Origin: Candidatus Aphodosoma sp.
Lineage (GTDB): Bacteria; Bacteroidota; Bacteroidia; Bacteroidales; Paludibacteraceae
Assembly (NCBI GenBank): GCA_045614825.1
Contig: JAZLDO010000040.1
Coordinates: 3,815 to 67,814 of the forward strand
DNA: 64,000 bases
Reading direction: 5' to 3'
The notes under the pieces were generated by a model. It did no database searches. It was not told where the DNA came from and saw only the letters and a list, made by a program, of their open reading frames with translations. Position 1 is the stretch's first letter, and every line of letters begins with the position of its first letter. The translations under genes were made by a program, and so were the position numbers. Below are positions 20,918-51,133 of this stretch, one piece after another.

Positions 20918-23900
20918 TTAATTAACCACAAATTTTCCAATATAAACGTCTCCTGTTCCACTCACAATTCTAACCAAATAAACCCCTTGAACATTCAATC
21001 TATCTAATGCTATTGGATATTCTGTTGGATAAACACTTAACACAACATTGCCTTGAGCCCCTATCACCTCTAACATCAATCCTCTCATCTCCTCAACAGT
21101 CCATGATTTATTCACGTATGTTATTTCTCCAATTTTTATCGGATTTGGCGCAATAACTAATGGCAATGCATAAACATTATCAAAACCTGTCTCATATTCG
21201 AGCGTGAGATTGACAATTGAGTCGCACGATGTGCCTTGTGTCATAAATGTTTCTGTATAGAAACCAGACTTAGTCAATGTGCGCTCGCCAAATTCGAAGA
21301 ATGAACCCTCTTCGATAGTAACGACTGTATCTACTACAACCGTTGGCACAAATTCAACAAACACTTCCACAATCGAATCGCAGCCTTCAATAGTAGATGT
21401 GGCACGCGACAAGAGAGTATCAGCTTTTATGCCAAACACATTAAATCCATATCCCACATACTCATATCCCTCACAAACATAATCGTCAAATCGGCTACGA
21501 GATGGCTCTGTGACACTCAAATGCAAGGTGATAATAGAATCGCAACCCAAAATATTTACCAACGAATCAACATAAACACCAGCCTCACTACGCTCCTCTC
21601 CACCAAAATAGTAGGTCGAACCTTGACATATTGTTGCCTCTAAGTCTGTTTTTTCAGGTATTACCCACAAATCCATCACCTCGACAGAGTCGCAACCATA
21701 TTGATTACGATAAAGTTTTTCGTATCTGCCAGCTTTGGTCAACGTCATGCCTTCCCACTCAAGAATAGTACCTTCACAAATAGTATCGCCATGTTCAAAA
21801 TATTTAGGATGCACCACAAGATTTAATGTTCGGAACTCGCAATACGAAACTGTATCCACATAAATACCTGTAGCTGTAATCTCTTTACCCGCAAATTCAT
21901 ATACCTCTCCTTCACAAATTGTGTCGTTGATGATTTCGCGCTTAGCTTGAACCACAAGATAGAGTCGCACAATCGAATCGCAACCACAAGACGAAATTTG
22001 TGGCTCACTCAAATATGTGCCCGACTCAGTGATATTATAGCCGGCAAATGCACCTTTGTTATATACATCACCAGGACAAATAGTATCGTTGAGATAGAAT
22101 GTACCAGAAGGATCAACAGTGAGATTCAAGACTTTCATCGTATCACACTCGCCTGGCACTTGCGATTCGATGAGTTGCTCGATACGATTCAATCCAAATT
22201 TCAACTTCTCTGTATCTATATCAAATCCATGACCTCTATAACGATTGCCCCAACATACATGGTCATTGTAAACTACCTCATTTGCACTATGACAAACTAT
22301 TTTAATGTCGTCAACCTTGATAGATTCAGAATAGCTATTGTCGCGCAACGAACGAGCCTTAAATTCTATCATGATGGTTTTGCCTGCGTATGCCGACAAG
22401 TCATATTCAACATCAGTCCATATGTTGTTTTTAACTGCATACAATACTGTATCAGAGAATGTGGCACCAGCATCGTCACTAATTAGTACTGCAAGGTATT
22501 CATCATCACGAATAGTTGTTTCGTATCTAAACGTCAATTTATATACGTCGCTATCGACAAACAACAACGGAGTGTGCAACACGGCATAACCATGAGCCAA
22601 AGAGGTGTTGAGCATAGCTGTGCGGTTGCCATTGAAGTCCTCTTTGACAGCCCAATCACGTACCGCCTCATCTAAAGTTGATGCGAGAGTCCAACACTCT
22701 GGGATATTGTCACCAGACTCTTCGAAGTTTTCGCGGAATGGTAGATTCACCACATCGCAATGCGTACGGAATGACAAGGTTGTCCAACTTGAACTATCGC
22801 CCGCTTGAGTCAACAATCCACGTACACGTGCATCGTATTGTGTAGAATTTTTCAAACCTACGAACGACACACTTTCTACACCAACTATTGTATCGCGCAC
22901 AACACTGCCATTAATCAACAACTGAACCCCATAACTATCTGCCAAACCATCGCCAGTCCAGCTCAAATCTGCAGTCGTAGAAGAGAGATAATCAACTGCA
23001 AAATTTTCGGGTTTTGCCAACAATACCTCTTTCACTTCAAACTCGTCGATAGTCAAAAGATATGTTGTAGAGTTGTTACACCACCATGGAGTAAATATCC
23101 AAACGCCTAATTCATAAACTCCTGTCTCGGTTGGAGTAAATGTAGCATCGTAATATTCATATGCTTGAGTGACTTGGTGATAATCTAACGTATCAAACTC
23201 ACCACCACGACGACGGGCAACAAAACCAACTCGCGAATCTTCTAACAACTCGCGTTGACGTGATTTCACACTCAATTCATAACGTTTGCCTGCAACCAAA
23301 TGGAATGGACGAGTCAAAGCAACATTTACGTCGTTTGTAGCTTTCAACACAATTGTTTCCAATGACGACAACATACTAATCTGACCTGCTGCCCTACCTC
23401 CCTTAGTGACTATCCAGCAAGGATCTAAATCAGAATATTCGAAATTGTCTATATAAGGTTGTGTTTTGGTTACGGTTATTATATCATCACAATAGGTTGT
23501 TAATTCGGTCATTTGCCACAAAGAAAAGTCTTCGTCTGAACATTTAACTCTCACAAACACATATTGTTTAGCATTAGGTTTCAAGTCCTCCAAATATATC
23601 ATGTCGCCCGATGCAACATTCGAGATAAATGCCTCTTCAGGATTATAAGTCAAACTAACTCGATATTCAACAACCGACAAATTCTCAGCTGTAAGTTTAA
23701 TCGTTGCCGTAACATCTTGCACATCGACTACCTCTATAGATTCTACTGCTTTACAGTTATTTTTCCGTACAATGATATTATCTATCGAAATAGGTGGTGT
23801 GCCATTGAGATATTGGTCGTTGTGCCATGTAACTACAAAGTTGTAATTCATAGGTTCTTCTATGACAAATGTTTCAGTTTGATTATGCCAAATCGCTGTG

Positions 23901-50700: not shown

Positions 50701-51133
50701 TCAAATCATACACCCCTTTGGGCAAAAATATCTCTTTATATGCAATATTATAGATTTGAGCATTCTTATAAGAGAGTGTTTTCCCTCCATCCGAACTGAT
50801 ATACAAGGCATTATCACCCACAAAAGCATCAGCATTCGACATATACCATCTATTTTCTGCTTTTGCCGCATTAGGACCCACATTCAAGTTCCACGAACTA
50901 TATGTCGTCGTATCTTCAAAACCCTCAAAATATGGCAAATTAACATAACTTTGAGCTTGTATTCTCAATGCAACCACAGAAAACAACAACAAAAAAGCCA
51001 CACACAACCCTTTATAATTGTGTATAGCACACTTGTGGAACAAAAATTCTTGCTTCAAATCAAAACGGTTTTTCATAAAAAGAGAATAGATTTTATTTAT
51101 TAATAAGTTATGCGCCAGTGTTTTACAAAACAT
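47774..51133 (-). CDS. Secreted multidomain protein (1119 aa), collinear paralogue of the 1089-aa protein
   Basis: Same architecture as its neighbour, with h-region LCVAFLLLFSVVALRIQAQ. An alternative start at 51076 (MKNRF) is possible. Unknown domain at 49418-50131, two Cys repeats at 48599-48922, tail ...GVYLLELVIGDERLVRKVVVE. Confidence 0.85.
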   Translation of the reverse strand: MFCKTLAHNLLINKIYSLFMKNRFDLKQEFLFHKCAIHNYKGLCVAFLLLFSVVALRIQAQSYVNLPYFEGFEDTTTYSSWNLNVGPNAAKAENRWYMSNADAFVGDNALYISSDGGKTLSYKNAQIYNIAYKEIFLPKGVYDLSFTWKCEGEMGADGLYVCWVSTKMATNSSVTSEPTFIKNTKLVFDGVDFLCGSKEWKTSTTTITQQSTTMYKLVFVWKNDASNNNPSLPSIVIDNIQIGAQGCGKPENVRTSALSSDISVRWDGGATGYELMYRRYGESEVHHVTGINQTSYTVKGMEEGVYDIFVRSCCPDDTSVWVVQNNVLVYNALSHCIDFINWDIDGTECETGAHVPGGAFVNDKFYPNVTSGSVRIGAVDFGYNSGQSRHTKHYIPGEMDPRTGNELPTVPEGEVVSVRLGNWNMGGEFESVTYTHYLDSGSNMILLLKYAIVIEDPGHDRVEQPVFMLELLDEHDNPLDASGCGDANFVANTKELINNPNSDGTWHIINAGTPILWKEWTTVGINMTEYAKYGPLKFKIRLTVFDCAQGGHFGYAYYTLNCEEATIEGLSCGENAGANINAPIGFNYRWYRVRDNKTVCTTRNLQGIEKNDTALYRCKVMFAQDSTCYFELDASLLPKLPKAQFSPKWVPRFCNENYINFQNTSHVTTARGATGEKCETHRWYLKENGDWTLIHEGDSLMYRFPNGGGKFDVMLQTGISNDECIDDTIVTVNVPRLGAVIDTICDTICEGKSLKIEGRRYMQEGFYRVYRGTSFGGCDSTVYLDLKVIPKERDTISAYLCGDETYVLNGQEFSRSGKYRTVYKADSTSKCECDTVVTLFLTVAKLSMDESIKLCSGENLVLEYSDGETGFESYEIQFSDAAKAAGLKDVAKTPLMEGGVIDLKVSEISDKKDGVNPLIPGKYEMNVVFYYKDENGEMQKCVNAVGLDVLYSSKTIEQKFTNVITLLDTEHNGGFEFDHIQWYKNGVPMEGENDTYIYVQEEDINNSDIYTVGLIKKGEREEIMSCGLSFNVGTPVENVEALGVDIVSNKIDVGERVVVVFEEGYNDCVVRWWSVAGILVGEEVVVKDGYLSSTPQRQGVYLLELVIGDERLVRKVVVE

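Follow-up and report, generated by a model that had tools for sequence, protein, structure and literature searches.

A recurrent gene cassette of gut Paludibacteraceae that may pair type IX-secreted, adhesin-like proteins with a wall-tethered barrel

We analysed a 64,000-nt stretch of DNA from Candidatus Aphodosoma sp. (Bacteroidales; Paludibacteraceae; assembly GCA_045614825.1, contig JAZLDO010000040.1, forward-strand positions 3,815 to 67,814), hereafter the window, in whose coordinates all positions are given. Five consecutive open reading frames (ORFs) on the minus strand, labelled A to E in order, fill positions 20918-51133. Four of them encode large modular proteins with tails resembling those recognised by the T9SS (type IX secretion system), and the fifth encodes a predicted outer-membrane barrel fused to a peptidoglycan-binding domain. 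In the reading that we favour, at about even odds, gut Paludibacteraceae (Candidatus Aphodosoma-like) carry a recurrent cassette, of which this locus is one copy, that encodes T9SS-exported, adhesin-like fibrils together with their own wall-tethered barrel anchor. The genes are as follows.

47774..51133, minus strand: gene A, called at 1119 aa but probably starting at M20 (51076), hence 1100 aa
44473..47781, minus strand: gene B, a paralogue of A that shares its architecture; 1102 aa from a TTG, or 1089 aa from the probable start Met14 (47742)
42802..44445, minus strand: gene C, 547 aa, with signal peptide, barrel, CRD-like domain and OmpA domain
32379..42716, minus strand: gene D, a giant of 3445 aa
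20918..32137, minus strand: gene E, a giant of 3739 aa, collinear with D

An earlier interpretation made from the letters alone (the sequence-only reading) had described these five minus-strand ORFs, and they were found at the coordinates it gave. It put B at about 1089 aa, in agreement with Met14 as the probable true start of that gene. The true start of A is probably M20, because in the AlphaFold2 (AF2) model residues 1-39 have a predicted local distance difference test (pLDDT) score below 50, the signal-peptide helix occupies residues 40-58, and homologues measure 1087-1103 aa. With B beginning at its TTG, genes A and B share 8 nt; with Met14 as its start, they lie 31 nt apart. The remaining spacers measure 27 nt (B-C), 85 nt (C-D) and 241 nt (D-E). 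The sequence-only reading also proposed signal peptides cleaved before Gln in the four large proteins; judged by eye and with no predictor, these and C as well have a signal peptide with A|Q or G|Q after it. Finally, Pfam and NCBIfam scans of A-E revealed no domain of an enzyme, transposase or regulator, in line with that reading.

The giants D and E are collinear and share 31-37% identity (BLASTP among the five proteins). When hidden Markov models (HMMs) were iterated on the five locus proteins, each giant resolved into about 12 jelly-roll (choice-of-anchor J) modules alternating with FN3 domains; the FN3 period is ~250-270 aa, with a jelly-roll module ahead of each FN3. These models placed 11 FN3 domains in D, 12 in E and one in B, together with 10 choice-of-anchor-J-type jelly rolls in D and eight in E, plus weaker ones. 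Library models agree, with NF038128 scoring 126 bits in D and 137 bits in E (cutoff 30) and fn3 (PF00041) scoring 137 and 189 bits, respectively (cutoff 25), while MAM, InhA-like_MAM and CBM_4_9 match both proteins weakly. The fn3 and MAM or NF038128 matches had been expected from the sequence, as had the collinearity of the giants and an 11- to 12-fold alternation of the two modules. Two further features picked out beforehand were also recovered by the HMMs: the N-terminal module type of A and B (AN) occurs three times in E and once in D, and Cys repeats of ~42 aa (...GCDS..L.L.V) stand just ahead of the tail in all four large proteins, with two copies each in A and B and five each in D and E. 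The modules and tails map as follows.

A aa 65-247, minus strand: AN module (iterated HMMs)
B aa 41-226, minus strand: AN module (iterated HMMs)
35238-35774, minus strand: AN module of D, aa 2315-2493 (iterated HMMs)
E aa 2078-2257, 2348-2527 and 2616-2795, minus strand: AN modules (iterated HMMs)
A aa 747-844: Cys repeats
32658-33554, minus strand: five Cys repeats of D (iterated HMMs)
21194-22084, minus strand: five Cys repeats of E (iterated HMMs)
32382-32621, minus strand: putative type A C-terminal domain (CTD) of D
20921-21157, minus strand: CTD of E

The AN module is distantly related to the choice-of-anchor J module (hhalign 94%), and NF038128 matches seven of 45 A-family members. In E, three consecutive AN+FN3 units (23753-25906, minus strand) repeat with an exact 807-nt period where D has a single unit, which looks like a lineage-specific internal expansion. 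No long DNA repeats were found within the locus; the module duplications are therefore old, and recent recombination or phase variation is not supported. Sequence similar to the C-terminal region of E (aa 3120-3739; 20921-22780), Cys repeats included, is widespread, with over 1700 carriers among Bacteroidota proteins whose tails are of type A or of type B, including proteins of Saprospiraceae, Chitinophagales and Crocinitomicaceae. No Pfam model matches the Cys-repeat region of the locus proteins, and a search with the C-terminal 620 aa of E returned no E orthologue with which the D-E adjacency could be tested.

This anatomy (NF038128, FN3, weak MAM and CBM_4_9, no catalytic domain) is adhesin-like. 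The pairing of FN3 with choice-of-anchor J has been recognised before, in putative T9SS adhesins of Prevotella intermedia (PMC11969387), and D and E share with these both the domain set and the tail class; their jelly rolls are also related to MAM and cleaved-adhesin jelly-roll domains. However, D and E are far larger (3.4-3.7 thousand amino acids, kaa), with about 12 two-domain repeats, and differ further in having the AN module in common with A and B, the Cys repeats and a conserved cassette around them. A narrower version of the adhesin reading would make the jelly rolls carbohydrate-binding modules (CBMs) of a non-catalytic polysaccharide- or fibre-binding apparatus through which, in the rumen, caecum or colon, the cell would be held to plant fibre or to glycans of mucin. 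The CBM_4_9 matches in D (1.4e-5) and E (2.6e-7), at or just above the 25.9-bit cutoff, are consistent with this, as are the lack of any enzyme domain in the locus proteins and the origin of all relatives in metagenome-assembled genomes (MAGs) from herbivore, bird or human gut. We nevertheless regard it as unlikely: the top models are choice-of-anchor J and MAM rather than CBMs, no glycoside hydrolase, SusC/D or polysaccharide utilization locus gene adjoins any cassette examined, and some relatives of A are fused to Peptidase_C10 and not to glycanases.

The sequence-only reading assigned the tails of all four large proteins to type A, a claim that stands in part. Against TIGR04183 (cutoff 23 bits), the tail of D scores above the cutoff (30.7), that of E falls just under it (22.0), that of B lies below (16.3), and that of A has no match and fails the CTD models when taken alone. 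At the level of the family the picture is clearer, since 22 of 45 A-family members, scanned singly, match TIGR04183 at E<0.01 (best E 5.7e-10). The A-family tail profile aligns with the D/E tail profile (hhalign probability 97%, E 8.6e-11), and in the PDB the A-family profile weakly matches the CTD of RgpB as well as a T9SS CTD. Moreover, the motif B Gly, the motif D GxY and the motif E basic residue (as defined in PMC11969387) are present in the tails of A, B, D and E, and in the A-family alignment G1077, G1099 and Y1101 do not vary. On the strength of the TIGR04183 scores, the hhalign result and motifs B, D and E, the four tails are predicted to be of the type A class, that of A being a divergent member.

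The two 1.1-kaa proteins, A and B, had likewise been called collinear, and they are 28.7% identical end to end (BLASTP among the five). Neither matches a Pfam family. Protein A consists, in order, of a signal peptide, an AN jelly roll, an FN3-like domain, a central domain, a PKD-like domain, two Cys repeats, a pre-tail domain and the T9SS-type tail; its AF2 model has a pLDDT of 83, and a profile search gave FN3 and PKD matches. Whole-chain Foldseek of A returned only generic multi-Ig structures (ROS1, C3 and GhpA fragments; TM about 0.1), which were rejected. The central domains lie as follows.

49394..50131, minus strand: central domain of A (A-core), aa 335-580, conserved in the A family
46102-46839, minus strand: central domain of B

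A-core, an all-beta domain of ~240 aa, is the most conserved stretch of the family. It combines invariant Cys with near-invariant His, Asp and Glu residues and contains the motifs SRHTxHY, DPRTGN, VRLGNW, LLLKYAxVxEDPGH, WKxWTT and DCxxxGHxGYAYF. It has no sequence match in Pfam, NCBIfam or the PDB, no Pfam model falls on it in nine diverse carriers, and by hhalign it is unrelated to the choice-of-anchor J, AN and FN3 modules. A profile built from two sequences of the domain nevertheless found 2259 cluster-50 representatives at E<=1e-3, of which 469 reached E<=1e-30. Most carriers are 1.0-1.1 kaa in length with the domain at about aa 300-540; other carriers are shorter proteins, CHU_C (type B) proteins or fusions in which it follows a Peptidase_C10 head. 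A search with A as query gave 80 relatives, the few named ones being 'hypothetical protein' entries of Paludibacteraceae MAGs. Judged from these alignments, A and B belong to a large uncharacterised family defined by A-core. Three relatives of A outside the window (P0056, P0058 and P0060) are 1.8-1.9 kaa long and carry an N-terminal, streptopain-like Peptidase_C10 domain, to which P0058 and P0060 add an Inhibitor_I69 propeptide; such fusions imply that an A-type body can present a protease head.

Protein C is unrelated to A, B, D and E (BLASTP among the five). Its AF2 model, built with 45 homologues, has a pLDDT of 85.5 and contains three domains.

43486-44328, minus strand: beta-barrel, aa 40-320 (AF2)
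43162-43401, minus strand: CRD-like beta-sandwich, aa 349-428 (AF2)
42808-43140, minus strand: OmpA-like peptidoglycan-binding domain, aa 436-546 (AF2, PF00691)

The barrel has two very long strand pairs and is followed by a disordered Lys/Pro-rich linker ahead of the beta-sandwich. The OmpA domain scores 83.6 bits with PF00691 (cutoff 27.2), keeps the peptidoglycan-binding motif TD...N..LS..RA (as HTDNVGS...NKKLSEGRA) and matches PDB entries 5wtp, 5u1h and 3td3/3td5, with about 40% identity to 3td5. The barrel and CRD-like domain of C itself match no Pfam family; among the 45 homologues, Pfam recognises OMP_b-brl_2 in 10, CarboxypepD_reg in 14 and OmpA in 36. The description of C as a barrel-CRD-OmpA protein, given from the sequence beforehand, is therefore upheld by Pfam for the OmpA domain, by AF2 for the barrel and sandwich and by the OMP_b-brl_2 and CarboxypepD_reg matches of the homologues. 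Fold and sequence searches with C led to the OmpA domains of Capnocytophaga OmpA, OprF, Omp38 and PorE; the whole-chain Foldseek search was dominated by OmpA-domain matches and was set aside. C resembles the OmpA of Capnocytophaga gingivalis (5wtl/5wtp) in the succession of barrel, periplasmic spacer and OmpA_C, the OmpA domains being 44% identical over 107-108 aligned columns. It differs from such Bacteroidota OmpA proteins in that its barrel spans about 280 aa with long extracellular hairpins and loops and belongs to a family that also exists in stand-alone, twin-Cys form and is genetically tied to A-family genes.

Conservation of the arrangement was assessed by a scan of species-representative genomes, which yielded at least 580 stretches encoding A relatives. 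The figures given here refer to the best 76 loci, whose ORFs were classified with our own HMMs as A genes (A), giants (G), OmpA-fused barrels (O) and stand-alone barrels (b). The 76 loci all belong to gut MAGs (buffalo, deer, horse, chicken, pig, human) classed as Paludibacteraceae, Candidatus Aphodosoma or unclassified Bacteroidales, with up to five loci per MAG among these best 76 alone. Tandem A genes, two or more, occur in 52/76 loci, a giant on the same strand in 46/76, a barrel in 40/76, both giant and barrel in 22/76 and neither in 12/76. Common orders are A-A-G (11 loci), A-b (8), G-A-A (7), A-O-A-b-G (7, and two more with an extra barrel), A-O (5) and A-A-O-G (3).

The sequence-only reading had proposed that it would be refuted if no relative shared the five-gene arrangement. 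Where the A proteins are 50-86% identical to A (L001, L002, L009-L012 and L014), the order A, A, barrel-OmpA, 3.4-kaa giant is kept, so this test does not refute it. At 30-35% identity the cassette is looser, with a stand-alone barrel between or beside the A gene and the giant. Of all 56 barrels, 49 lie within 400 nt of an A gene, and the more a barrel has diverged, the more its neighbouring A gene tends to have diverged too (Spearman 0.64, n = 44, no phylogenetic control). One order, A-barrelOmpA-A'-twinCys-barrel-giant, recurs in nine listed loci (L054, L059, L067, L069, L070, L074, L076, L077 and L082); here each A paralogue is followed by a barrel of its own, the two barrels differ in their tethers, and A' has a single Cys repeat. 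No barrel adjoins the genes of P0080, an A-core protein with a CHU_C type B tail, or P0075, an A-core protein that matches PKD_6 only and has a separate CHU_C gene beside it, which argues that the barrel linkage is specific to the Paludibacteraceae-type cassette. Other genes were seen near some cassettes: one A-A-barrel cassette has, upstream and on the opposite strand, a tandem run of three Peptidase_M6 (InhA-like) genes (L005 1-5126; GCA_028748505.1), and conserved ORFs of 309 and 523 aa precede the A gene of a distant cassette (L006 5468-7968 and L007 2676-5176). Neither of these ORFs has a Pfam match; a signal peptide is present in the 523-aa protein, whose N-terminus, rich in Gly and Ala, recalls FadL/PorV-like barrels.

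Comparison of 33 complete stand-alone barrels with 28 barrel-CRD-OmpA fusions revealed two exclusive kinds of C-terminus. The stand-alone barrels, 295-375 aa long and homologous to aa 40-340 of C (BLASTP E 1e-19 to 1e-27), end in a tail that carries C-x-C or C-x-x-C directly after the last strand (...KFTVLF) in 31 of 33 cases, Cys being otherwise scarce in these proteins (0.6%). None of the 28 fusions has such a twin-Cys tail, and C of the window lacks it as well. Peptidoglycan binding requires the fused OmpA domain to lie in the periplasm; the barrel's C-terminus would accordingly face that compartment, as would the twin-Cys tails. Both devices are known from T9SS carriers. Liu et al. (2025; PMC12635249) found the periplasmic C-tail Cys-Xaa-Cys of SprF and PorG disulfide-bonded to Cys343 of GldK, a bond that couples these outer-membrane proteins to the track or ring. 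Gorasia et al. (2022; PMC9143113) describe a PorE-PorP-PG1035 complex and SprF bound to SprB, and propose that PorP-like barrels anchor type B cargo; PorE brings CRD and OmpA_C domains. By their sequences, twin-Cys and OmpA tethers are mutually exclusive alternatives within the barrel family, and C of the window would be the peptidoglycan-tethered form.

Transcription signals around the genes are listed below; the functions of the two promoter-like boxes are putative.

42751..42796, minus strand: hairpin in the C-D spacer (-28.1 kcal/mol, z = -7.4)
32324..32370, minus strand: intrinsic-terminator-like hairpin and T7 run directly past the D stop (-28.1 kcal/mol, z = -8.0)
32182..32189, minus strand: TATCTTTG, matching the -7 consensus TAnnTTTG, 44 nt 5' of the E ATG
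51182..51189, minus strand: TAAATTTG, matching TAnnTTTG, upstream of A
20858..20911, minus strand: hairpin past the E stop (-23.9 kcal/mol, z = -3.5), the likely end of the locus

TAnnTTTG is the -7 promoter consensus of Bacteroidetes, as in Bacteroides promoters. A sigma-70 promoter scan, ill-suited to Bacteroidota, gave background levels only, and a consensus terminator scan missed the hairpin after D because its stem is A+T-rich. The hairpin between C and D could be an attenuator, a terminator or a processing site. Only 27-31 nt separate A, B and C, and transcription probably proceeds in three units: A-B-C; D, reached by read-through or attenuation; and E. The strong hairpins after C, D and E and the Bacteroidetes-type -7 box before E make it improbable that the locus is a single operon.

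We infer the export, anchoring and function of these proteins as follows. A, B, D and E would cross the inner membrane via Sec, with signal peptides cleaved before Gln, and the outer membrane via the T9SS, by means of their type-A-class CTDs. D and E would form long beads-on-a-string fibrils in which ligand-binding jelly rolls are spaced by FN3 domains, and A and B would be 1.1-kaa partners that bear the family-specific central beta domain. The C-terminus of the C barrel would lie in the periplasm, where the CRD-like and OmpA-like domains could bind peptidoglycan. C may thus serve as a cassette-specific carrier or anchor that holds the neighbouring surface protein or proteins, most likely A and B, at a fixed, wall-tethered site, much as PorP-PorE holds PG1035 and SprF holds SprB. 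In sister cassettes, the twin-Cys tail of the stand-alone barrel would instead be disulfide-linked to the PorK/GldK ring or track. As a whole, the cassette probably serves to attach the cell to surfaces in the gut, be they of host, glycan or particle, and the many diverged paralogous cassettes could provide a repertoire of specificities.

Several observations weigh against this proposal. All type A CTDs have been assigned to the PorV shuttle (PMC12618676), and type A cargo should therefore need no private barrel. PorP/SprF models (PF11751 / TIGR03519) match neither C nor its 45 family members in Pfam scans, nor 22 barrel-only members in NCBIfam scans (E<=1); a barrel-only profile found nothing credible in the PDB and nothing relevant in NCBIfam, with no match to a PorG model. 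The barrel thus matches only the generic OMP_b-brl_2, so that a carrier role rests on analogy. In 36/76 loci there is no barrel within about 10 kb, for which contig ends account in part only, and a barrel is therefore not obligatory. The strong hairpins that separate C from D and D from E make co-transcription doubtful, and no T9SS core genes (PorK/L/M/N, Sov/SprA, PorV, PorU) were seen within the 64-kb window.

Some of these points would also fit a surface-protein island in which the genes are uncoupled, type A cargo is attached by PorU to anionic lipopolysaccharide, and C is a general structural OmpA-like protein. Type A CTDs are served by PorV and PorU without private carriers (PMC12618676; PMC9143113), and the generic barrel match, the loci with no visible barrel and the intergenic hairpins, which suggest separate transcripts, point the same way. 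We consider such an island a real but rather unlikely alternative. Chance neighbours would not readily explain why 49 of the 56 barrels adjoin an A gene across A divergence to about 30% identity, why genomes hold several paralogous cassettes with their own barrel or barrels each (two in A-O-A-b-G), or why the barrel co-diverges with the neighbouring A gene. Likewise, the exclusive tethers (31/33 versus 0/28) argue for a specialised rather than a housekeeping barrel family.

For a cassette with its own barrel anchor, two known systems offer close parallels. In Porphyromonas gingivalis, a barrel, a periplasmic peptidoglycan-binding module and a T9SS cargo come together as a surface anchor in PorP-PorE-PG1035 (PMC9143113); C resembles this set in combining a barrel with CRD and OmpA_C domains, and holds both in one chain. 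The PorE model NF052230 reaches 86.3 bits on C against a cutoff of 600, aligning only positions 454-604 (CRD-OmpA_C) with C aa 383-529, and the structure of the PorE C-terminal domain (6top) is a fold match. However, the full PorE architecture of TPR and WD40 plus CRD and OmpA_C is not found in C, which lacks TPR and WD40. Its barrel is not of the PorP family by Pfam and NCBIfam, the cargo tails of the locus are type-A-class and not type B, and the interaction between barrel and cargo would here be a presumed one.

The second parallel, that of SprB/SprF and of the PorP/SprF-type B cargo pairs in Flavobacterium johnsoniae (PMC12618676; PMC12635249), also has giant repetitive surface proteins encoded beside a private barrel, and the stand-alone relatives of the C barrel end in a vicinal twin-Cys tail like that of SprF and PorG. 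The sequence-only reading had drawn an analogy to sprCDBF, and this tail strengthens it. It could be taken further, to a gliding-type system in which the giants are propelled along the cell surface as mobile adhesins, as the sprCDBF-like gene logic and the SprF-like tails of the barrels in sister cassettes might suggest. We think this very improbable. As the sequence-only reading had noted for SprB-type repeats, neither these (PF13573) nor CHU_C tails have a match in A, B, D or E, and the barrel is not PorP/SprF by any model. In addition, C has an OmpA tether in place of the Cys tail, and fusion to a peptidoglycan-binding domain would immobilise it. The organisms that carry the cassette are anaerobic Bacteroidales of the gut, and Paludibacter propionicigenes, the cultured type species, is described as non-motile. 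Adjacency of barrel and cargo, a trait of PorP/SprF, is seen for 49/56 barrels, whereas a type B CTD on the adjoining cargo is not.

Pfam, NCBIfam, the PDB and the literature searched yielded no characterised system that matches the locus from end to end, in keeping with the earlier view that it could not be assigned to a described one; nor did that literature contain anything specific on the cassette, on Aphodosoma or on the T9SS of Paludibacteraceae. Some of its parts are of known kinds, namely the FN3 and choice-of-anchor J T9SS cargo and the OmpA-family protein. The cassette as such, the A-core family and the barrel family with its twin-Cys/OmpA alternative appear undescribed in the databases and literature searched. 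We suggest tentatively, with clearly less confidence than we place in the cassette itself, that the barrel is the first member of a third class of T9SS cargo carrier besides PorV and PorP/SprF, one that serves type-A-tailed A-family cargo and has two interchangeable periplasmic tethers, the twin-Cys tail bonded to the PorK/GldK ring or track and the PorE-like CRD-OmpA module fixed to peptidoglycan. If so, fibrils could be deployed either on moving or ring-associated machinery or at fixed, wall-anchored sites, and coupling of the giants to the carrier would fall to A-core, as a new domain for ligand binding or assembly.

The cassette offers a natural experiment on carrier drive through the PorK/GldK disulfide and on PorP/PorE anchoring. 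Should its interpretation hold, private carriers would extend to type-A-class cargo and to non-gliding gut anaerobes, and there would be a way to test by what means very long adhesins are attached to the envelope of Bacteroidales. Two sizeable uncharacterised families, the A-core domain and the barrel, are defined in the process; both occur several times per genome in gut Paludibacteraceae, which are abundant but uncultured and whose giant genes reach about 10-11 kb.

On one flank, the locus is bordered by housekeeping genes (gyrB, dnaN, topA, obg, a NUDIX gene, lepB, dapB, aroB, nadA and ychF), and on the other by an M23/LysM peptidase gene and a dihydrolipoyl-dehydrogenase-like gene. Directly downstream of E lies a 165-aa ORF (20319-20816, minus strand) with a signal peptide cleaved before Gln; its product is very rich in Cys, Lys and Arg and has no Pfam or NCBIfam match. 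A hairpin stands between this ORF and E, and a strong terminator between the ORF and ychF. At 54516-61258 (plus strand), a gene for a Kinase-PolyVal protein (PF18762) is followed by ORFs of 791 and 668 aa, the last two with no NCBIfam or PDB sequence match. PF18762 is typical of mobile-element polyvalent proteins, and this segment may be the remnant of a mobile or defence element adjoining the locus.

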